NCBI GenBank assembly: GCA_017617355.1
Contig: JAFZWI010000002.1
Location: 19,640 to 83,639, forward strand
DNA: 64,000 nt
DNA from: Salinivirgaceae bacterium
GTDB lineage: Bacteria; Bacteroidota; Bacteroidia; Bacteroidales; SZUA-534
Reading direction: 5' to 3'
Every line of letters starts with the position of its first letter. The stretch's first letter is position 1. Below are positions 3,041 to 20,308 of the stretch, piece by piece. The notes beneath the pieces were generated by a model. It saw nothing but the letters and a program-made list of their open reading frames with translations. It made no database searches and was not told the origin of the DNA. Made by a program: the position numbers and the translations under genes.

Positions 3041-4267
3041 ATGGGCAGACCGAGAATAAACAAAGATGAGAAGGTCGCGCAAAAGGCGCGTTTTGATTTC
3101 ATTCACTCGCGGCGCGGCGATGACAAGCTGGAGCTGCTAATCAATTTCGGCTATTCGACGCGCCGGTATGTGGCGACCAAAATAGAGATTCCCAAGTCGG
3201 CGTGGAACGCCGAAGAACAGTCGGTGGTTAAACAATACCCGAACAGCGACAAGATTAACCTCTATCTGCTGCAACTCAAAAGCAGATACGAGGCCGTGGA
3301 GCTTGACTGTATGACAAGGGGTATTCCCTTCAACCCCGAAGCGCTCAATATGGGGCTGAAAATCGGGAGCGCCGGCGTTGTGGCGTACTGCCGCGAGAAA
3401 ATCGACATCGACGTAAAGCGAGAGCTTTACGCGCCGGGGACGGTAAAGCACTACACGACATTCTGCAACGTGCTGGAGCGATTTGAAAAGCAGATGGGCG
3501 AGCTGCTGACTTTCGACATTCTCAACAAGGATATGCTGATTCAGCTTGACATATTCTACAAGAGCATATACACCAGCTTTGAAACGGTGCGCAAGCAGTT
3601 TACATATCTGCACAAGTTTTGCAAAACGGCCAAAGAGGACGGGCTTTTGACGCACGACCCTTTCGCCGGATTCAAGATTGAAAGAGGCCGCGAAACAAAG
3701 CAGACAATGCGCGACGCGCTGAAAGCCGACGAACTGCGGCGGCTGGAGCAGATAGCCGCCGACGGCTGGCTCGACGATAACACACAGCTTGTTTTAGACC
3801 GCTTCCTGCTGTCGTGCTACACCGGCTTGCGCATATCGGACAACGCCGACTTGCGGCGTACCGACATCACCTACGACGAGGACGGACATCTTGTAATCGA
3901 CCGTATCACGCTGAAAAACAAGATTAGGGTATTGCTGCCGCTGCACTACCTTTTCGACGGCAAGGGCGAGGCCATTGTCAACAAGTATATGGAGCGATAC
4001 AAGCTGAACCAGTACGTGTTTCCGCAGCTGTCCGACCAAAAGACGAACTCAAAGCTGAAGCTGATTGCGGCGGCGGCGCAGATTCGCAACTTGGGGCTGT
4101 CGTTTCACATCGCGCGGCACACTTGCGCAACAATGCTGGCTGAAAAGACCGGCAACCCATATACCATTATGCAGCTGCTCGGTCATTCCGACATCAAAAT
4201 ATCAATGACCTATATACATAACAGCTACGCGACGGTGGTAAACAGCCTCGCCGGTGTCAAGTGGTAG
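3041..4267 (+). CDS. int: tyrosine site-specific recombinase (phage integrase)
   Basis: 408 aa. The C-terminal catalytic pattern is LRISD..., HIARHTCAT (HxxR) and LLGHSDIKISMTYIH (H...Y). The N-terminal SAM-like/arm-binding region is typical of Bacteroidota integrases. Confidence 0.92.
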   Translation: MGRPRINKDEKVAQKARFDFIHSRRGDDKLELLINFGYSTRRYVATKIEIPKSAWNAEEQSVVKQYPNSDKINLYLLQLKSRYEAVELDCMTRGIPFNPEALNMGLKIGSAGVVAYCREKIDIDVKRELYAPGTVKHYTTFCNVLERFEKQMGELLTFDILNKDMLIQLDIFYKSIYTSFETVRKQFTYLHKFCKTAKEDGLLTHDPFAGFKIERGRETKQTMRDALKADELRRLEQIAADGWLDDNTQLVLDRFLLSCYTGLRISDNADLRRTDITYDEDGHLVIDRITLKNKIRVLLPLHYLFDGKGEAIVNKYMERYKLNQYVFPQLSDQKTNSKLKLIAAAAQIRNLGLSFHIARHTCATMLAEKTGNPYTIMQLLGHSDIKISMTYIHNSYATVVNSLAGVKW

Positions 4268-6046: not shown

Positions 6047-7777
6047 TTAAAGTCCTACGACTTGCTTTAATCTCTCAATTTCACGTTGTTGGGTTGCGAC
6101 AATTTCGCGTAATTGCTCTATACACGAAAGCGCCACGATTGACAATTTTGAATAGTCAACACTTTTATATCCGTTCTCGTCCTCGCTGACGATTTCGGGC
6201 AGCACCTTTTCCACGGCCTGCGCCGACGTGCCGATGTTGGTTCGTCCGTCGCCGTCGTTTTTATATTCAAAACGTTTAAGCGGAATATCGGCCAGCCGGT
6301 CGAGGCCGAATACAAAATCGCTCAAATATTTTTTCAGCCTATCGTCCGATGATTGGTAAAGCCCGACGGCGGTAATGTTCGATGTGCTTTCAAGTGTGCC
6401 GGTTCTAACCCTGCCGTTCAAAATTGCGGCGTAGCCAGTCGGAACATCAATTTGAAGGCCAACGTTGTCATCGCCGCCCGATATTGAAATCGTGAGGCCG
6501 CGCAATTTTGATTTGTATGTGGTTGTCGCGTCAGTACCGCCGTGCGTGTTTCCCAGCTTTATTTCCGCGCCGGTCATTTCTACGGCTGTTGAAGCACCGT
6601 CGGTTTTGCCGTTAATCGTAAGCGGAGCTTTTTTAATGTTGCCGATGTATTTCCAAGTGCTTGATGTGCCGGATACACTGGTGCAAACAAATACCTTGCC
6701 GCTGCTGACATTGTGGTACATATCGCCGGCTGACGGATTGTAATCATAACGGCTGTTGGTTGTATTTACAACGCTTGATGTTGCTGTTGCGCCAACTGTG
6801 TTTGACGTTGTGGCTACGTCCGTGCCAAAGAACCAACGCCCTGCGGAAGCGTCAGCGCCATTTGTGCCGTTTGTGCCATTCGTTCCGTTTGTGCCGTTAG
6901 AGCCAGTCGCGCCGGTGTCGCCTTTAGCTCCCTTGATGTTGCCGATGTAGCCCCAAGTGTTAGCCGCGCTTGCTTTATAAACATTCCAGCTGCTTGTGTT
7001 CAAATAAAAGTCGCCGGCCTTTGAGTTGGTAACGCTGGCCGAAATGCCCGATGTGTTCGTGCCGGTTACGGTCGCGCCGCTAAACCACGTAGCGCCATTT
7101 GTGCCGTTTGTGCCATTCGTTCCGTTTGTGCCGTTAGAGCCAGTCGCGCCAGTGTCGCCTTTAGCTCCCTTGATGTTGCCGATGTAGCCCCAAGTGTTAG
7201 CCGCACTTGCTTTATAAACATTCCAGCTGCTTGTGTTTAAATAAAAGTCGCCGGCTTTTGAGTTGGCAACGCTTACGGTTTGCGACCCCGACGTGTGTGT
7301 TACGGCTGTGCCGCCAAACCACGTAGCGCCGTCAGTGCCGTTTGTGCCGTTAGAGCCAGTTGCGCCGGTATCACCCTTGTCACCTTTCGCACCTTTTAGG
7401 TTATGGAAGGTGAGGACGGTTTTTGGCGCTCCAGTCTGCGAATCGACTGTATTTTCGGGAGTTACCGACGGCGTTCCAACTTGGTCTATATCTTGACTTG
7501 TGCCAATTTCAATCTGCTGAATGGCTGTTTCGCCATCGCTTACCGCCCAGCTCGCAACGCCAGTGTTGCTGATAGCTGTGCATTTATACATTTTACCATC
7601 GGACTGACAATAAACGCGGCTTCCAACAACTATAATACCGTCATTGTCGCCATACGCACACGGCAAGGCGTTTCTTGCGTTTGTGTCCGCAACCACGCAA
7701 TAGCCGCCCTTAATGTTATCCGCGTCAATCAAATGTTTGCTTGCCAGCGACGAGCCTAATTGAAATCCTACATTCAT
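6047..7777 (-). CDS. tail fibre/spike protein with collagen-like repeats and a C-terminal Peptidase_S74 intramolecular chaperone domain
   Basis: 576 aa. G-X-Y runs (GAKGDTGATGSNGTNGTNGTNGTNG) occur three times inside 79-aa tandem units. The C-terminus SSDDRLKKYLSDF...IGTSAQAVEKVLPEIV...YSKLSIVALSCIEQL matches the SDxRxK autoproteolytic chaperone of endosialidase/L-shaped fibre type. Confidence 0.85.
   Translation of the reverse strand: MNVGFQLGSSLASKHLIDADNIKGGYCVVADTNARNALPCAYGDNDGIIVVGSRVYCQSDGKMYKCTAISNTGVASWAVSDGETAIQQIEIGTSQDIDQVGTPSVTPENTVDSQTGAPKTVLTFHNLKGAKGDKGDTGATGSNGTNGTDGATWFGGTAVTHTSGSQTVSVANSKAGDFYLNTSSWNVYKASAANTWGYIGNIKGAKGDTGATGSNGTNGTNGTNGTNGATWFSGATVTGTNTSGISASVTNSKAGDFYLNTSSWNVYKASAANTWGYIGNIKGAKGDTGATGSNGTNGTNGTNGTNGADASAGRWFFGTDVATTSNTVGATATSSVVNTTNSRYDYNPSAGDMYHNVSSGKVFVCTSVSGTSSTWKYIGNIKKAPLTINGKTDGASTAVEMTGAEIKLGNTHGGTDATTTYKSKLRGLTISISGGDDNVGLQIDVPTGYAAILNGRVRTGTLESTSNITAVGLYQSSDDRLKKYLSDFVFGLDRLADIPLKRFEYKNDGDGRTNIGTSAQAVEKVLPEIVSEDENGYKSVDYSKLSIVALSCIEQLREIVATQQREIERLKQVVGL
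6855..7400. repeat. in-frame tandem repeat, 237-bp period (2 full copies + 1 partial)
   Basis: GCGCCATTTGTGCC... at 6855 recurs at 7092 with near identity over about 180 bp, and a diverged third copy lies at about 7326..7400. It encodes the collagen-like + SKAGDFYLNTSSWNVYKASAANTWGYIGNIK unit. Confidence 0.9.
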
Positions 7778-7789
7778 AACTACTTGTAT

Positions 7790-8884
7790 TTATGCGATTT
7801 TATAATTCTTTATTTCTGCCGTACCTTGTTTGTCCGACATAAGGCAATAGTATGTTGCAACCAGCCCGTTAAGCATTGTGAATTGCACGGTTGTTTTGGT
7901 TGTTCGGGTAATATTCACCCATTGCCCAACGAAAAACTCTTGAATGTTTGCTTTACTGCTGTCAGTGGTTAGGAAGAAAATATAATCATTAACATTGTTG
8001 CTAATTGTAACGCCGTCATTTTCGTTGATTGTTTTTTCTTTGGTCATTGACGCATCGTATTGTGTCGGCGCAGAATTAGATGATTGTGCGCCGCAATAAA
8101 TGTACTTTTTATTAACCACAATAGCCGACGATTGACTTGTGTCGGAAACGGTGTAGTTGGCTTTTGTGGCCTTTACCTTGTATGCACCAGCCGATTGGTT
8201 GTCGCTTACGGTTATCGTCTTTGAGTTTTCGGTTAATTCAGTCCAGTTTGTGCCGCCGTCAACGCTATATTCGGTTATCGCGTCATTTGTGGCCGACTTA
8301 CTAATGATTACGGTGGCCGTGGCCGCGTATTGGTCGCTATTATCTACCGAAAGAGCCGGCTGCGCCACTTTTGGGGTTATGACAATAGTGTATGGCTGTG
8401 TGGCCTCGTCGCTTGAAACGCCGTTCTTTATGGCTTTCACCTTTACATATTTTGTCAGCGCGGAGTTGTCAGCGTCGGTGCTAAAACCGCTGGCTATTGA
8501 AAATTTGCCGTTTGATATTTGTGTGTATTCCACGTTAGCAAGCGCCGCAGCGGTGTCGGCAATCTTGTAGTAGGCGGTTGCACCCGAATCAATGCCCGAT
8601 ACCTCAATTACCGCGCTGCCAGTAACAACGCTTTTTGCTAATTGTGCAGCGGCTATCGTCGGGGTGTTCGGCTTCGTAAGTTTTGTAAGCGCCGCAAAGT
8701 AGCGGTCGTTGCCAGCCGATACAACCAACTGTTTGTTGTCGATGTCGATTGTGTAGGTGTCGGCTGGCTCGATGTTGCCGTTGCTTCCGATTTTAAGAAT
8801 CTTGCCCGGCTCGGCGTTAGCCACTGTTGCGTTCAGCAGCTTGTTGCCATTCAAGTTTATGTCGGTTTTAAAGTCCATATTCAA
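7790..8884 (-). CDS. fibre/receptor-binding-type protein with two Ig-like (chitobiase C-terminal-like) modules
   Basis: 364 aa. The N-terminus MNMDFKTDINLNGNKLLNATVA is fibre-like. Two modules have the pattern ...YYKIAD...VKVKAIKNGVSSD and ...EYSVDGGTNW...YKVKATKANYTVSD. Confidence 0.6.
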   Translation of the reverse strand: MNMDFKTDINLNGNKLLNATVANAEPGKILKIGSNGNIEPADTYTIDIDNKQLVVSAGNDRYFAALTKLTKPNTPTIAAAQLAKSVVTGSAVIEVSGIDSGATAYYKIADTAAALANVEYTQISNGKFSIASGFSTDADNSALTKYVKVKAIKNGVSSDEATQPYTIVITPKVAQPALSVDNSDQYAATATVIISKSATNDAITEYSVDGGTNWTELTENSKTITVSDNQSAGAYKVKATKANYTVSDTSQSSAIVVNKKYIYCGAQSSNSAPTQYDASMTKEKTINENDGVTISNNVNDYIFFLTTDSSKANIQEFFVGQWVNITRTTKTTVQFTMLNGLVATYYCLMSDKQGTAEIKNYKIA

Positions 8885-8889
8885 ATGAT

Positions 8890-11800
8890 TTAAGGTTCAT
8901 CAAAAGGTTCGTCCATTGGCTCGTCCCACGGCTCTTCCCACGGGTCGGGTTCGTCGGGGTTAGGCAGGTCGGGGTCTTCCCAAGTCGGTTCAGTCCAATC
9001 GGGGTTAGGCTCGCCGCAGCGTGAGCAGAATTGTCCATCGCCCCAATCGTGGCCGTAAGCCGCGCACTCATCAAAGTCGGGATTAGGCTCACCACAACGA
9101 CGGCAAAATTCAGTTGTGCTATCCCAATCGTGGCCGTAAGCCGCGCACTCATCAAAGTCGGGATTAGGCTCACCACAACGACGGCAAAATTCAGTTGTGC
9201 TATCCCAATCGTGGCCGTAATCTTCGCACTCGTTATAGCCGGGGTCGCTCGCTCCACAGCTTGTGCATACTCCGTGTTCAAAGCTGTGCGCGTGTTCGTG
9301 GAATATTTGTTCATATTGCGCTGTAAACTCCACATTATTGGCCGGCATTGTGCTTGGAATAGCTGGCGACCAGCCAGTGAAGCGCCATTCAGTATAACCT
9401 TCGGGCGTTGATTCGTCGCCGTCGAAAATATCGTTGAGAGTTGGCGGCGTAATTGCCTCGCCTACGGCTATTTCAATTTCTTCGGGGTCAGCCGGTTCGC
9501 CCGACGAACCGAGATAGTTGAATGTCGCGGTGTAAACTTGTCGCTGTTCTTCGACGGCCACTATTGCCGCACCCATAATACTGATTGTCAGTGGATTTTC
9601 GGGCGTTACAACATTGTTGCCGTTCCAGCTTACGGTTATTTCGCCGTTATTATTCGCGATATTCATACCAACAGCCGCGCCGTTCAAATAACAAACCACA
9701 ATCGGAGCTGTGCCGCACTTATGCGTAGCAGCGGCAATAGTTACGGAGTTACCCGAAAGATAGTTTTTGCAAACGTAGATGTAATGGCCGATGTTGGCGA
9801 GCTTTGTTTTTTCCTCGTTAGTATAGTCGTTTGTTGATAGCCCTTTATTGTCAACTTTGTCAACCTTGTTGCCGATTGCCGTATTCATTGCAGCCGCGCT
9901 ATCCGCGTGTTCAGTTATCCAGTCGGCAATTTCTCTCAGTGTATCAAGGGAAGCCGGAGCGTTTGCCACCACCTCTGCAATAGCGTCGGAAACTGTCTTT
10001 TTTATTGAACCAGCCGAGCCGTCAGTTTTATTTAACAATTCAATAGCGGCTTCGTTAGCGTCGATTTTGCCTTTGTATGTGCTGACATATTCGTCAATAG
10101 CCTCTTTTCGGGTATTTGTAAGGTTGTTGTCGGTGTGAACATACTTATTATCCGATACGAGATTTTGGTCGTTGATAAGCTGGCTGGCGCGGTTAATCAC
10201 AAAGTCAATGTCAGCGCCAGTAAAAGTGCCATCGCCAAGATTCTCAAAGAATGTGCCGCTGACGGCCTCGTACAAGCCAACAACACCGTCGCTCAAACGT
10301 TGTGCAGGAGCAAAGTGCGCTTGTAGTGTTGTGCCGTCATACACTTTGAACGAATAGAGCCTAACCGAAGCAAATTGAGCCACACCGCCGTCGTTGTTGC
10401 TAGCGAATAAAACCAATGTGTTTAGCGTTTCAAAATCGCCAGTATCGGGCATTTCGGCGGTTGTGCCGTCGGTATAGGTAAATATGCGGTTTTGATATTT
10501 CAACACCAATCGTTTGTTAGCTACAAGTTTCGGGTCTATTGCGGTTTTGTTTGTGTTTACTGCAAATTCGCCGCCGGGCTTTGTCGCATATATAGAGATA
10601 GAAAATCTTGCGGCTGCGGAGTTTTTACCACCAGCATTTAAAATGACTGGCTGGCCGTTTGCGGTTTTAGGCGCGTGAGGTGTGCTAAAGTCTATTTCAA
10701 AACCGGTGTTTTGGTTAGGTTTTATGTTGGTGTCAATATACTGGCTATAATCCTTATTGCTTTCAATGTAGGCAAGTTGTTTATAGCCGTTCATTGCTAC
10801 GGGCTTCACCTTTTGCGCATAAAACGCATCATTTTCAAACGCGCTAACTTTCGTCGGCGTGTCGGTTAAATCGTTGTAGCTGCCCGAATTGGCTATCGGG
10901 TTAAGTTTCTTAACTTTGTTAAAGTCCTCATTATTCAAAAGATTGCCGTTTTGGTAGCCGTTGAGCCATTGCCACGCCGAGCCGTTCCATTGAATAAGCG
11001 AACCGGCAGGGTAGATAACTTGCTTGTCAACAAGGCAATCAAGCGACGCTTTAATGCGTCCGTGCGCGTCGAGCAAGGGATTGCGGTTGGGCGAGCCAAG
11101 AATGAACGTATCGACCCACACGTCCGAATGTAAATCTTCAAGCGTATAGCCGTTCCACCCCTTTGCTGTATTTAGTGCTTTTTCTTCATCAAGATAAATA
11201 TTCATTTGTTCCTCGCCGGCAATCGAAAATTGCGACGGAGCAATGCGGAATCGCTTGATAGACGGCTTATATTGAACGTTACCGCTGGCGAAAATCACAT
11301 ATTTATCCTCACCAACCTTAAAAGCGCCCAAATCGTCGGCTTGCGCGTCCCTTACAAAACGAACTGACGATGAGAGAAAAGCCCACCAATCGTCGTGAAA
11401 ATTAACCGAATTAAAATAAACGGTAGCTCCGTTACGGTTTATCTCGGCGTTTCTATAATGATTGTCAACAAATAACAGCCGCCAAACCAGCCGGTAAAAA
11501 TTAGAATATGTATCATCGTCCGTTTCCTCCGTGCCGCGTGGGTTAATATCCATAAACGCATACGCGGTATAAGGCTGCAAAGCAAATGTCGGAGCGCCGC
11601 CTACTTGGTTGTCGTTGTTTGTTCTAACGACCCTATAAGTCGGGCACCACGGCAAAAATATTGCGCCGTTCTGCTCCATAATAGCCCACTCTGCTTCGGT
11701 AAATGTTACAAGGTCGTAATATTCAGCCGACGGCGTAAAAAGTCTATCCGGGTCGGTATCGCTGTATTTCAGCCCCTCTGCGCTCCAGTCCCAGCCGTCC

Positions 11801-12258
11801 GGCAATAACAAAAGGCCACAAACGTTGCCAATCATTGCAAGGCTGTGCAATGTGGCTGCATTTGGTCGTGTGTTGCCCAAATAGTTTCCCTCGGCAAATG
11901 TCAACAGCCGCCAGCCGTCGGGGTTAAAAGCCTTATCTTCGTACTCGCGCACGGTGGCTGTTGTGGCCTCGCGTATGCGGTAAGTATCGCCTTTTTTGGG
12001 GTTAGCTGGCAGTTGCGCAAGTGATTGGATTGTTTCCGCAATTTTGCTTATGCCGCCAGCAAACATTTCATTTATAGTGTGTTGGTCGTATTGCCCTATG
12101 CCGCCCAATTTCTCGGCCAGCTCGGTGCCTTGTTGGGCAATATCCCAAATATTATCGCAATACGCAATCGGGTAATTAGCAGGGTTGCCACTTTCAAATG
12201 TCAAGCCCATACTACTGATTGGACTTTTTGCGGTCGTTGGTTTCTTTGCTTGTGCCAT
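8890..12258 (-). CDS. large tail fibre protein (1122 aa) with a Cys/His-rich repeat tip
   Basis: Contains the phage fibre motif APASLDTLREIADWITEH...GLSTNDYTNEEKTKL and a jelly-roll-like stretch (YIESNKDYSQYIDTNI...VRLYSFKVYDG). It also has a Listeria-Bacteroides-repeat-like segment (EGYTEWRFTGWSP). Four C..YGHDW..FC..CGEPNP units and an acidic Pro/Trp tail close the protein. Confidence 0.8.
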   Translation of the reverse strand: MAQAKKPTTAKSPISSMGLTFESGNPANYPIAYCDNIWDIAQQGTELAEKLGGIGQYDQHTINEMFAGGISKIAETIQSLAQLPANPKKGDTYRIREATTATVREYEDKAFNPDGWRLLTFAEGNYLGNTRPNAATLHSLAMIGNVCGLLLLPDGWDWSAEGLKYSDTDPDRLFTPSAEYYDLVTFTEAEWAIMEQNGAIFLPWCPTYRVVRTNNDNQVGGAPTFALQPYTAYAFMDINPRGTEETDDDTYSNFYRLVWRLLFVDNHYRNAEINRNGATVYFNSVNFHDDWWAFLSSSVRFVRDAQADDLGAFKVGEDKYVIFASGNVQYKPSIKRFRIAPSQFSIAGEEQMNIYLDEEKALNTAKGWNGYTLEDLHSDVWVDTFILGSPNRNPLLDAHGRIKASLDCLVDKQVIYPAGSLIQWNGSAWQWLNGYQNGNLLNNEDFNKVKKLNPIANSGSYNDLTDTPTKVSAFENDAFYAQKVKPVAMNGYKQLAYIESNKDYSQYIDTNIKPNQNTGFEIDFSTPHAPKTANGQPVILNAGGKNSAAARFSISIYATKPGGEFAVNTNKTAIDPKLVANKRLVLKYQNRIFTYTDGTTAEMPDTGDFETLNTLVLFASNNDGGVAQFASVRLYSFKVYDGTTLQAHFAPAQRLSDGVVGLYEAVSGTFFENLGDGTFTGADIDFVINRASQLINDQNLVSDNKYVHTDNNLTNTRKEAIDEYVSTYKGKIDANEAAIELLNKTDGSAGSIKKTVSDAIAEVVANAPASLDTLREIADWITEHADSAAAMNTAIGNKVDKVDNKGLSTNDYTNEEKTKLANIGHYIYVCKNYLSGNSVTIAAATHKCGTAPIVVCYLNGAAVGMNIANNNGEITVSWNGNNVVTPENPLTISIMGAAIVAVEEQRQVYTATFNYLGSSGEPADPEEIEIAVGEAITPPTLNDIFDGDESTPEGYTEWRFTGWSPAIPSTMPANNVEFTAQYEQIFHEHAHSFEHGVCTSCGASDPGYNECEDYGHDWDSTTEFCRRCGEPNPDFDECAAYGHDWDSTTEFCRRCGEPNPDFDECAAYGHDWGDGQFCSRCGEPNPDWTEPTWEDPDLPNPDEPDPWEEPWDEPMDEPFDEP
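9051..9240. repeat. perfect 81-bp tandem repeat (2 identical copies + flanking diverged copies)
   Basis: The unit CCCAATCGTGGCCGTAAGCCGCGCACTCATCAAAGTCGGGATTAGGCTCACCACAACGACGGCAAAATTCAGTTGTGCTAT starts at 9051 and again at 9132, with a third partial copy at 9213. It encodes DFDECAAYGHDWDSTTEFCRRCGEPNP. Confidence 0.95.
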
Positions 12259-17329: not shown

Positions 17330-20308
17330 TTATTGAATTATATCGGTTACTTCTCCTCTTCCGTTTATGACTTGATAGGTTATTACCTTGCTCCAATAGT
17401 GAGCATTATGCACGCTGAATTCAAATCCGACCGAAGAAATGTTAATTATTGAGTTTGCATTGCCGGTGTATGTATCGGCTGTATAAAGCCGTATATAATC
17501 AGGCCAATATTCTCTCGATTCTATATTGTGGTATGTTATTATCAATGTATCTCCATCTTCAACTTGAATGCCGTTATCAATAAGAATTTCAGCTGCAAAT
17601 ACATTCCCGGAAATGTTTAAGCGATACGTATTACCTTGAGGTATTTCCGCAACTGGCTCTTGATTAGCTAATGCGTTAGTAATAGCTGCCGAAACATATT
17701 GTTGCACAAAGTCGGCAACCGCTTTTGGCGTAACTGCAATACCAAATTCGGTGTTAACGTTGCCACGGATTTGGTCGGTGAGAATTACGTGTCCGAGAGT
17801 TCCGTCGGTAGCTCTTACTGCCGCGTGTGTGCCATCAGCTTTTAAACAATAGCCCTTTGCTTGAGTTATCTTTTCTTCCAATGCGATGTCGGCAGCTGAA
17901 CGTTTATTTGCCTCTACTTCGTCGGCGGCTTTGCGAGCCGATATTTCGGCCATAAGCCGCCCAGCAACCGTAATCATTTCAAACATTTCGGCAAATGAGG
18001 CAGGATAATTGTATAGACTGCGGTAGATAACTGAAGCACGACGGATAAACGAGCCTTGAGAAATGCGACCAATCGGTTCATCTTTCGCAACATCTATAAA
18101 ATTTATTTTTTCAAAATACTCGACCATATCTAATGCCGTACTGTTGTCGGCAATGCGATAAATAAAATCATTGAGTTTTACAACGTTTAGCGCGTCGAAT
18201 ATGGAGTTTGCTCCAAAATTCTCTGCGACGTTAAGTTGCACAGCATTGGTTGTAAGCCACTCGGTTAGCCGGTCGGGAGTTAAATTCTTACGGATTGTAC
18301 CTTCGTAGTAAGATTCCGTATAGTAAAAATTCCACACACTCCTTAACTCGTCATATATCTTAATTCGTCGATAATAACTATATTCGAAATGAGGGTCATA
18401 GATTGGAGTTTCAATGGAAGTAATATTTGTCGGGTCTAAATTCTTGCCCAGCACATCGTAAACCGTTACATCAGCGGTGATTTGATAATAATTACCAAGC
18501 CATTCAACAATTTCGCCGGCGGCGTAGTTATAATGGCTACCAAATTCAAACGGCGCGACTTTTTGCAATAGAGCAGGCAGGTCAACAGCCAATTTGCAGC
18601 GGTAAAGATTATCGTCATTGACAATACATTCCCCAACGGCATACGACTTTTCAATGTCCGCACTATCGCCGGATTCTTCAAAGTTGGCTTCAAATATGTC
18701 GGGGTCGGCGTAATCGTCAATACAGCGGTATAAATTGCCTTGTCGTGTTACAAGGTCGCCAATGGTGTATGTTGCCGTCGGGTCAAACTCTGCCGCAAGT
18801 GTGGTAATGTTTGATTTAGTGGATACGGCTTTCGGTGTAGCGGCAACGTGGCTGTCTGCGCCAAGTTCGGGCTGATAGTCCGAATCCGACAACATTACGT
18901 GCGCCGATACAGCGCCAGTGGCTTCGTCTGCGGCGTGGCTGTCGATGTTGGTTTGCAACGTAGTGTCGGCGGTCTCCCTTGCCTCGGCTTCGCTGTCGAT
19001 GTTGGTTTGCAACGTAGTGTCGGCGGTCTCCCTTGCCTCGGCTTCGCTGTCGATGTTGGTTTGCAACGTAGTGTCGGCGGTTTCTCGCGCGTAGGCTTCG
19101 TCAGCCAGCGCGCCGGAAAGTGCCTTGTTCAACTCCGCAACGGCTTTCGGAGTTGCGGCTGTGCGTTTGTCAATATCACTATTATCGTCAGCGTAGCTGT
19201 CGGATAGACGGACAAAACCATACCTTTCGGCGTTGGCGGCTAATGAAACAATCTCAACCATTCGGCTGTGGCCGTTGTTTATCAGCCTTAAATAATATGG
19301 CTGTTCAACAACATTTGAGGTAGCTTCCAGTAAGTCGTATTCATACCCCTTGCTATCGCGCACAAAACGAGTTCCTCGTGGCAAGTCGCGGTGCATAAAA
19401 AGCCATTTTTCGGCAAAATCATCGCCAACAGCCACATTGAATTTTATGCCAGTTTCGACGGTATTGCCAGCTTCTCGTTCAACTCTGCTGAAATCCATAA
19501 TGCGCTTAACGCTACAAGGGTGCAGTTGCAACTCCCATTCAGTGTTTTCGTCGGTTTGACCAGTTATTGAATAGACATTCACTTTGCCGTCGGAATATTC
19601 GGTTAATGTGCGGCGATAATTGCCATTACCCATCAAAACAACCTCAAGACCAAAAGCTCCGCTGTTGTCGGGGTAAGCTCCGTGGTAGAAGCCGCTTTGG
19701 GTTAGAGCTTTCATTTTGTTTTTCAGTGCGAGTTTTTTATCGCTGACGCTGGAATTTTGCTCGTTCTCTTCGGCTGTTAAAGTCAATTCTTCAGGGTAGA
19801 AGAATCCACTCTCAACATTCTGCGTTCCGTCAAAAGCGTGGCCTTGTATTAGTTTTGTTTCTTTCAAACGGTCGGCCTCGACAGACGATTCAACCTGCAC
19901 TGCCTGGATAGCATATTTTTTCCACTTGGTGCGCTTCGGAACAATAGGATTTCCGTCGTTGTCGAAATTCGGGTTAGGGTCGGGGTGTTCGCTGTCGGGA
20001 ATGTTCTCGTATGGATTTTCAAGGCGGTCTTTTTGCGGATAAATCAAACCGTTGGATTCTGCTTCGTCGTAAACGTAGAAAGCACGTTCCTTTCTAACCC
20101 AAACAAACATACCGTCATAGGCTACATTGCTGCGTTCTTCGGTTATATCATCGCCACTTATAATAAAAAGGTCGCTTTCCTTGTTAACCACAAGGCGCAC
20201 GTCAATAGGAGCGCGTAACGCCGTTAAATAAAGCGCACCAAAGCCAACCGTAGGCTGGTCTTTAAAAATGGATTTATCTTTCGATGTTTTTTCTACTGTC
20301 TCTGCCAT
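17330..20308 (-). CDS. large fibre protein (992 aa)
   Basis: Three copies of the fibre motif x-L-[ST]-D...[AV]-[AV]-TPKAV (FVRLSDSY...TAATPKAVAEL; HVMLSDSD...VAATPKAVSTK; HVILTDQI...IAVTPKAVADF). There are also three 18-aa tandem repeats, ARETADTTLQTNIDSEAE. Confidence 0.75.
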   Translation of the reverse strand: MAETVEKTSKDKSIFKDQPTVGFGALYLTALRAPIDVRLVVNKESDLFIISGDDITEERSNVAYDGMFVWVRKERAFYVYDEAESNGLIYPQKDRLENPYENIPDSEHPDPNPNFDNDGNPIVPKRTKWKKYAIQAVQVESSVEADRLKETKLIQGHAFDGTQNVESGFFYPEELTLTAEENEQNSSVSDKKLALKNKMKALTQSGFYHGAYPDNSGAFGLEVVLMGNGNYRRTLTEYSDGKVNVYSITGQTDENTEWELQLHPCSVKRIMDFSRVEREAGNTVETGIKFNVAVGDDFAEKWLFMHRDLPRGTRFVRDSKGYEYDLLEATSNVVEQPYYLRLINNGHSRMVEIVSLAANAERYGFVRLSDSYADDNSDIDKRTAATPKAVAELNKALSGALADEAYARETADTTLQTNIDSEAEARETADTTLQTNIDSEAEARETADTTLQTNIDSHAADEATGAVSAHVMLSDSDYQPELGADSHVAATPKAVSTKSNITTLAAEFDPTATYTIGDLVTRQGNLYRCIDDYADPDIFEANFEESGDSADIEKSYAVGECIVNDDNLYRCKLAVDLPALLQKVAPFEFGSHYNYAAGEIVEWLGNYYQITADVTVYDVLGKNLDPTNITSIETPIYDPHFEYSYYRRIKIYDELRSVWNFYYTESYYEGTIRKNLTPDRLTEWLTTNAVQLNVAENFGANSIFDALNVVKLNDFIYRIADNSTALDMVEYFEKINFIDVAKDEPIGRISQGSFIRRASVIYRSLYNYPASFAEMFEMITVAGRLMAEISARKAADEVEANKRSAADIALEEKITQAKGYCLKADGTHAAVRATDGTLGHVILTDQIRGNVNTEFGIAVTPKAVADFVQQYVSAAITNALANQEPVAEIPQGNTYRLNISGNVFAAEILIDNGIQVEDGDTLIITYHNIESREYWPDYIRLYTADTYTGNANSIINISSVGFEFSVHNAHYWSKVITYQVINGRGEVTDIIQ
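18938..19090. repeat. 54-bp in-frame tandem repeat x3
   Basis: GCTGTCGATGTTGGTTTGCAACGTAGTGTCGGCGGTCTCCCTTGCCTCGGCTTC is repeated at 18938 and 18992, with a diverged copy at 19046. Confidence 0.9.

Follow-up and report, generated by a model that had tools for sequence, protein, structure and literature searches.

The 64,000-nucleotide stretch of DNA analysed here (the window), which belongs to contig JAFZWI010000002.1 of a Salinivirgaceae bacterium, harbours a prophage in which one gene encodes a tail-fibre-like protein of 1122 amino acids (P0001) that ends in four short Cys/His-rich units and an acidic Pro/Trp tail. The interpretation favoured by the present data, to which a rough probability of 0.55 can be attributed, is that this end of the fibre represents a metal-stapled extension cassette of a type shared with cell-surface stalks, which would serve reach or auxiliary adhesion and which has undergone one recent duplication.

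The C-terminal sequence quoted in the initial annotation coincides exactly with the end of the translated open reading frame, and the four terminal units described there are all present. The elements concerned are the following.

8890..12258, minus strand: tail-fibre-like gene (P0001), 1122 amino acids, from the open reading frame listing and its translation
9301..9537, minus strand: InlB-B-repeat-like domain (beta-grasp, "periscope"-type), residues ~908-986
9232..9300, minus strand: unit 1, residues 987-1009, HEHAHSFEHGVCTSCGASDPGYN, a canonical "HxH" short unit with a candidate His2Cys2 site
9151..9231, minus strand: unit 2, residues 1010-1036, ECEDYGHDWDSTTEFCRRCGEPNPDFD, with a candidate Cys3His site
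9070..9150, minus strand: unit 3, residues 1037-1063, a recent duplicate of unit 2 (78/81 nt identity)
9001..9069, minus strand: unit 4, residues 1064-1086, ECAAYGHDWGDGQFCSRCGEPNP, a diverged variant
8893..9000, minus strand: acidic Pro/Trp tail, residues 1087-1122, ending WEEP-WDEP-MDEP-FDEP
9042..9220, minus strand: perfectly periodic DNA found by direct scan, a 98-bp self-match at offset 81 (9123-9220 vs 9042-9139)

The last 136 residues of P0001 consist of the four units and the 36-residue tail, and the ligand residues are intact in every unit, including the diverged units 1 and 4. Structure prediction, which had been proposed earlier as a check on this end of the protein, divides it in two: in the AlphaFold2 (AF2) model, built from a 10-row alignment, the units are confidently folded, with a predicted local distance difference test score (pLDDT) of 89–92, and the tail, at 66–72, is unstructured, being devoid of secondary structure. 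DSSP assigns to the modelled units short strand pairs and, in each 27-residue unit, one 5-residue helix spanning the "ECxxY" segment (E-C-E/A-D/A-Y). The tail is rich in D, E and P and holds four times the motif (aromatic/Met)-[DE]-E-P, with a 12-bp period at the DNA level; this motif (WEEP-WDEP-MDEP-FDEP) is unique within the genome. To judge from the model, the tail is probably an extended linker-like segment, and similar D/E/P-rich linkers follow the terminal short unit of several cellular homologues (L067, L076, L102, L130, L158 and the C-terminus of P0015).

By their sequence, the units are members of a widespread family of stalk repeats of surface proteins that has no Pfam or NCBIfam model: no model of either collection covers the homologues, and NCBIfam likewise finds nothing on the P0001 units themselves. 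The family motif is (C/H)-x-H-x-[FYW]-x2-G-x-C-x2-CG-x2-DP-x-[YFW], its beginning taking in the homologues the form (C-x3-4 or H-x)-H-..., and in the aligned units (profile A2) H, G, C, C, D, P and Y are invariant. A phmmer search of 1.84 billion representative proteins yielded 50 matches (best 8.5e-13), most of which carry tandem units. When scored with a short-unit profile constructed from 289 distinct units (Z=1), unit 1 reaches 27.7 bits (E 6e-11) and unit 4 13.6 bits (E 1.5e-6); units 2 and 3 give a partial match of 6.5–6.9 bits, confined to the knuckle half, because their loop is three residues longer than the canonical one. Searches of PDB sequences with the fragment and with profile A2 returned only sub-threshold ribosomal zinc ribbons and no sequence-related solved structure.

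The proteins carrying short units are extracellular, and the units are flanked in them on one side by functional domains (SBP_bac_1 solute-binding, GDPD, PKD, beta-helix, leucine-rich repeats) and on the other by an anchor of transmembrane or LPxTG-like type, an SLH domain, a dockerin or a linker. As read from these domain orders, the short unit of the cellular homologues occupies a stalk or linker position and not a ligand-binding tip. The canonical unit, searched for with a degenerate DNA pattern, was found at 120 or more genome loci, nearly all in gut or rumen Clostridia, the remaining ones belonging to a few Coriobacteriia or Bacilli, one Hallerella and about four Bacteroidales-labelled bins. 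Profile A2 matches 26 of the 201 genomes examined in one Clostridia order vs 2 of 201 in the order of the host, each count including its seed genome, and a genome scan with the repeat segment of a homologue confirmed nothing. The GC content of the repeat region is 54–56%, not above that of the neighbouring collagen gene, and is thus of no use as a sign of foreign origin. An uncultured Parabacteroides bin (L067:592-648, minus strand) encodes a 751-residue surface protein having a beta-helix, long Cys3His modules and a single terminal short unit, to which an (EP)n linker and, at the C-terminus, a beta-rich domain are added; the cassette therefore exists, rarely, in Bacteroidales-labelled bins.

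Each unit offers a set of either three Cys and one His or two Cys and two His, namely the motif His, the CxxC pair and one further Cys or His. The candidate for this fourth ligand in P0001 is a His at position -2 with respect to the motif His in unit 1 and a Cys at -5 in units 2–4, and in the homologues the same position is taken by either a Cys (-4 or -5) or a His (-2). Its distribution is telling: an extra Cys or His 2–6 residues before the motif His is found in 69/69 tandem short units vs 44/277 (16%) non-tandem ones, where tandem denotes a short unit directly following another short unit and the non-tandem ones usually follow a longer Cys3His module ending IPALGH. A dependence of this kind is expected if four ligands are needed and if, outside the tandem arrangement, the neighbouring long module supplies one of them. 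The distribution thus argues for each unit being a four-ligand metal site, the ion probably being zinc.

The earlier description of the units as zinc-ribbon-like holds as far as a Cys/His module resembling a metal site is concerned, as indicated by the conserved ligand columns and by the AF2 model, and fails for a zinc ribbon of the classical type, the Pfam similarity being sub-threshold (DZR PF12773, 17.2 vs 27.3 bits; Zn_Ribbon_1 PF13240, 13.1 vs 25) and each unit having a single CxxC. Like the zinc ribbons and knuckles of these two families and of the ribosomal proteins eL37, eL40 and bL32, to which their similarity is likewise sub-threshold, the P0001 units display a CxxCG knuckle on a beta-hairpin; unlike zinc ribbons, which have two CxxC knuckles, they present a C/H-H-C-C ligand set in an extracellular context. 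A Foldseek search of the bead model against PDB and BFVD gave nothing significant, every top match being a zinc finger or a zinc ribbon.

Metal ions are no novelty at the tips of phage fibres. In T4, gp37 binds Fe2+ through His residues and gp12 binds Zn2+, and the metal stabilises these distal fibre parts, as is proposed here for P0001. The T4 ions, however, lie on the trimer axis and are held by His residues from three chains, whereas each P0001 chain would carry Cys/His knuckles of its own in independent beads.

Immediately ahead of the units, residues ~908-986 adopt in the model the fold of an InlB B-repeat. This segment has phmmer matches to proteins carrying PF09479/PF18998 and its identity to 21 Flg_new repeats amounts to 29–49%, the motif columns being conserved. 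The top Foldseek matches of the AF2 model of residues 900-1010 (pLDDT 76.5) are the InlB B-repeat structures 9qr4, 7pv9 and 2y5p (prob 1.00, E 1e-3 to 7e-3, TM(target) 0.64–0.69), and the same model also matches structures containing CTD1 of the Thomasclavelia ramosa IgA protease (9i4z, 9qdh and 9ekk, prob 0.99) and the SHIRT domain. The Pfam gathering thresholds are missed by the segment (PF18998, 10.1 vs 23.6 bits; SHIRT, 13.4 vs 22.4 bits). The P0001 domain thus resembles the InlB B-repeat / Flg_new_2 families (PF18998, PF09479) in motif columns and in fold (2y5p), and differs from them in being one divergent copy with three insertions.

The closest described counterpart of this arrangement is found in the T. 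ramosa IgA protease, whose domains ZBD1 and ZBD2 (CTD2 and CTD4) have no structural homologue, contain AlphaFold-predicted His2Cys2 or Cys3His sites at subdomain interfaces, are indicated by small-angle X-ray scattering to form an extended rod and were interpreted by the authors as "metal-associated periscope domains" projecting the enzyme from the cell (PMC12237041; PMC12415215). The published ZBD subdomains are 35–55 residues long and form a three-stranded antiparallel sheet, and none of the 24 Cys of the enzyme is engaged in a disulfide bond in the experimental structures or in the predicted models, the ZBD regions being modelled only (PMC12237041; PMC12415215). The order of the parts is identical in the two proteins, a B-repeat-like domain (CTD1, before ZBD1, in the protease) being followed by Cys/His modules and then by a linker, and both have extracellular tandem mini-modules with predicted His2Cys2/Cys3His sites, those of the protease being free of disulfides. 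On the other hand, the P0001 units are shorter (23–27 residues, a hairpin plus a short helix), are in pure tandem and have each a fourth ligand of their own, and the carrier is a Bacteroidales prophage fibre instead of a sortase-anchored Gram-positive enzyme.

A profile of the long modules recognises the ZBD regions of an IgA-protease homologue (genome G262) with 14–25 bits, the shuffled maximum being 10, and long Cys3His modules are present as well in 62 of the 175 proteins containing short units. In the surface proteins of gut Clostridia, the short unit either comes after such long modules or stands in their place. The three-unit profile A2 gives no significant match to the protease homologue, and the P0001 units score 1–6 bits with the long-module profile, over the CxxCG...GH half and under the shuffled maximum of 10. 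The homologue in question, an M64 protein of 1331 residues (L190, G262:C30:1213000-1219500), contains in ZBD1 a block of ~72 residues (HTHNLTLV...HWHEC) present twice, ~102 residues apart, so that its ZBD1 region is ~100 residues longer than that of the published 1234-residue enzyme; this looks like a periscope-style length variation in a zinc-module domain.

The repeat DNA bears the mark of a very recent duplication, as had been supposed: units 2 and 3 arose from it, a stretch of 98 bp matches itself perfectly at offset 81, and an 81-bp period (2.3 copies, 97% matches) is detected at 9042-9231 by Tandem Repeats Finder. The identity of 100% initially claimed for two 81-bp copies applies to two full periods read in the register beginning with "YGHDW"; in the register originally chosen (ECEDYGH vs ECAAYGH) the copies differ at 3 of 81 nt, ED being replaced by AA. 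The further suggestion that the copy number is still changing finds no correspondence in the data, the protein having 1122 residues in all four assemblies available, which are near-clonal and short-read; since such assemblies may hide heterogeneity or collapse longer arrays, the assembled copy number is a lower bound. Unit junctions, copy number and the perfectly periodic DNA (9042-9220) are identical in the three other public assemblies, so that the P0001 terminus is not an assembly chimera. Two of these (L193 and L196), found through the integrase, have a fibre gene identical to that of the window at every nucleotide, and the third (L194, the same record as L009) differs from it by 5 single-nucleotide polymorphisms (SNPs), four of which change an amino acid (S726R, K729N, E994A in unit 1 and F1119V in the tail). 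The 81-bp duplication is recent and yet looks stable across these near-clonal samples.

Over 22 kb, the window and its L009 twin differ at 8 positions (5135, 7075, 8904, 9278, 10069, 10072, 10081 and 12527), all within the fibre/glycosyltransferase block and 5 of them in the P0001 gene. Three of the latter lie within 13 bp (10069-10081), a cluster that points to either a small conversion tract or selective pressure in the P0001 gene.

For periscope proteins, which have tandem globular repeats with near-identical DNA (SHIRT, Rib and G5-E stalk repeats), it has been proposed that intragenic recombination adds or removes repeats and thereby alters reach (Whelan et al. 2021, PMC8201768). P0001 is akin to these proteins in its highly identical tandem DNA repeats and in having an upstream domain that resembles SHIRT and InlB B-repeats. 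It departs from them in possessing only 2.3 near-identical copies and in the location of the repeat, which is at the free end of the fibre instead of separating an adhesive head from its anchor; no length variation was seen in the four near-clonal assemblies.

P0001 as a whole is a mosaic protein of tail-fibre type, an assignment based on family similarity and on the gene cluster to which it belongs. PHROG tail-fibre and tail-protein families match its residues 695-828 (E 1.6e-12 to 5e-5), and among its 112 homologues full-length cover is limited to near-identical copies, the others sharing at most 23%. Over its first 81 residues, P0001 shares 63% identity with a prophage protein of a congeneric genome; such a layout agrees with an N-terminal part that attaches to the virion and distal parts that vary.

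The initial annotation had considered Cys/His repeats at a fibre tip to be a non-standard receptor-binding architecture, a judgement in keeping with the failure to find another example among 50,697 phage records, by pattern in 2.9 million IMG/VR contigs or among the 112 partial homologues, none of which (0/112) contains the units. The P0001 gene gave no megablast match to the phage records, and tblastn of the C-terminus against them gave two weak matches and no true protein match; the two were rejected as cytoplasmic-type C4 zinc-ribbon repeats on SPFH-like proteins, which belong to a different family. A scan of IMG/VR with whole P0001 retrieved only a common fibre motif (residues 740-828), and one of JGI metagenomes with the C-terminal 223 residues retrieved nothing. 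The strict DNA pattern of the unit had 0 matches in the IMG/VR contigs and a looser one found one 124-residue head-module protein and one chance match, these pattern scans detecting canonical spacing only and hence not proving absence. No relevant paper emerged when the literature was searched for zinc ribbons in tail fibres or beside InlB B-repeats.

The 124-residue protein, identical in four IMG/VR contigs of 50–220 kb (L183:6605-6979, plus strand, and L182, L185 and L186), ends in a single short unit (PVCEHEFVDGVCTKCGTADPDFVPAE); its gene, in another phage, is flanked by those for the portal protein and the head-maturation protease. It would be a second use of the unit in a virion module, on the head side.

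According to the extension-cassette reading, one domain of InlB-B-repeat fold, four beads of 23–27 residues and a D/E/P-rich tail would form a single cassette, as in the surface stalks of gut bacteria, where it spaces a functional domain from the envelope. Each bead would be a short hairpin with a CxxCG knuckle and would coordinate a single metal ion, probably Zn2+; the four ligands would be the motif His, both Cys of the knuckle and one more residue situated just before the His. The result would be a chain of small rigid modules in which disulfides would not be required. The C-terminal end of a fibre is usually distal, and beyond the conserved fibre shaft the cassette would constitute a stiff extension with the acidic aromatic tail outermost; its contribution would be reach and perhaps auxiliary adhesion, more likely than primary receptor recognition. 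Slippage or recombination between the 81-bp repeats would have produced one extra unit and an extension longer by one bead.

Several points weigh against this reading. AF2 does not model zinc, and the bead model was obtained without metal; the 81-bp unit shows no copy-number variation among the four assemblies; the short-unit profile scores ≤0 bits on the ZBD regions of the IgA-protease homologue and is thus blind to them, so that the link to the ZBDs rests on architecture, co-occurrence and pattern and not on demonstrated sequence homology; and, as a spacer, the cassette would project only a 36-residue tail, which makes a pure stalk role less natural than on a cell surface.

The prophage is integrated beside a tRNA-Lys, with host genes to the left, and encodes at least five fibre-like proteins besides P0001. 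The neighbouring features are listed below.

2536-2609: tRNA-Lys, neighbour of the prophage integration site
3041-4267: tyrosine integrase with the domains Arm-DNA-bind_5, Phage_int_SAM_5 and Phage_integrase (Bacteroidota-type)
6047-7777, minus strand: fibre-like gene with collagen repeats and a Peptidase_S74 chaperone, 576 amino acids
7790-8884, minus strand: gene for a 364-residue protein with a fibre-type N-terminus (LNGNKLLNA), starting 5 nt past the P0001 stop codon
12270-13688: collagen-like gene of the fibre-like cluster
17330-20308: gene with Phage_fiber_2 and CBM_5_12, of the fibre-like cluster

If the end of a fibre is its distal part, why should the Cys/His units and the acidic tail not be the actual receptor-binding tip, recognising the host surface directly? 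They do lie at the C-terminal end with only the aromatic-acidic tail beyond the units, and the P0001 gene contains five of the eight SNPs that distinguish the diverged twin over 22 kb, the four nonsynonymous ones including E994A and F1119V. Nevertheless, direct recognition by this end appears unlikely, given that the cellular homologues have the module in stalk or linker positions by their anchors, that several other candidate binding domains lie upstream within P0001, that the module is missing from all 112 fibre homologues and that the prophage has at least five other fibre-like proteins at its disposal.

It is rather more doubtful that the cassette is a recently captured, functionally neutral fragment of a surface-protein gene, or else a C-terminal pro-region which the mature virion has lost or does not need. 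The mosaic character of the fibre, whose relatives other than near-identical copies share at most 23%, the scarcity of the module in the order of the host (2/201 vs 26/201 genomes) and the tail predicted to be unstructured would suit such an origin; on the other hand, the reading frame is intact in the four assemblies, the ligand residues are kept in all four units and a Pfam scan finds in P0001, unlike in the neighbouring fibre gene, neither Peptidase_S74 nor any other known self-cleaving chaperone motif.

A bolder proposal, and a quite improbable one, is that the bead chain acts as a metal-dependent functional tip in which zinc-bound beads present the (W/F/M)-[DE]-E-P tail as a docking or adhesion peptide for the host surface or for the downstream fibre protein. 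If true, the availability of zinc in the gut would gate the deployment of the fibre, and a Bacteroidales phage would have borrowed a stalk module typical of Clostridia.

The tail on its bead stalk could also be a docking peptide for another virion protein such as the product of 7790-8884, giving rise to a branched fibre. In favour of it are the tight adjacency of the two genes, the fibre-like N-terminus of the downstream product, the local cluster of several fibre genes and the occurrence of branched fibre or tailspike assemblies in other phages; no co-variation or co-occurrence was found, however, because the tail motif is unique, and the proposal is regarded as very unlikely. Least credible of all is the idea that the cysteines form disulfide knots and not metal sites, which the extracellular nature of P0001 would allow and which is hardly reconcilable with the odd number of Cys (3) in units 2–4, the invariance of the motif His and the replacement of Cys by His at the fourth position among homologues, the anaerobic gut bacteria that serve as hosts and the lack of disulfides among the 24 Cys of the related IgA protease, whose ZBD regions are modelled only (PMC12237041; PMC12415215).

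Cys/His bead modules abound in gut anaerobes, and their only prior description consists of the predictions made in one IgA protease (2025). What appears to be new here, as far as sequences can tell, is a minimal self-contained tandem form of 23–27 residues, for which the requirement of a fourth ligand would be readable from sequence statistics, and a new carrier, P0001 being the only phage-fibre occurrence found in these searches, in a lineage where the module seems to be rare. Stalk cassettes made of B-repeat, beads and acidic linker are thus confined neither to proteins of the cell surface, a virion fibre carrying one as well, nor to a single phylum. The 136-residue fragment with its four predicted sites is a convenient target for a first metal-binding test of the family and, if the beads matter for adsorption, they would represent a new kind of fibre module for studies of host range in gut phages.

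The collagen-like/S74 fibre next to P0001 differs in length between assemblies, having 576 residues in the window (6047-7777) vs 497 in L196 (L196:4609-6102), an otherwise identical prophage copy in which it is thus shorter by exactly one unit of 79 residues (237 bp). The assemblies L193 and L194 have no unbroken version of the gene, a C-terminal piece of 318 residues being all that is called in them, and L194/L009 has a run of N there (L009:15110-15209). The length difference is either real variation or an assembly collapse of the repeat.

At the other end of P0001, residues ~115-215 (11610-11915), which match no Pfam family, are 37–47% identical to domains repeated in giant proteins of 1354–3099 residues encoded in the genome of the host itself (G000:C12:38158-38448 and G000:C51:20566-20799) and in congeneric genomes. 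Finally, the Ig-like C-terminal part of the 364-residue protein (7790-8884) is found also fused to the C-terminus of the fibre homologue P0077, and its presence in both proteins points to module shuffling among fibre genes.

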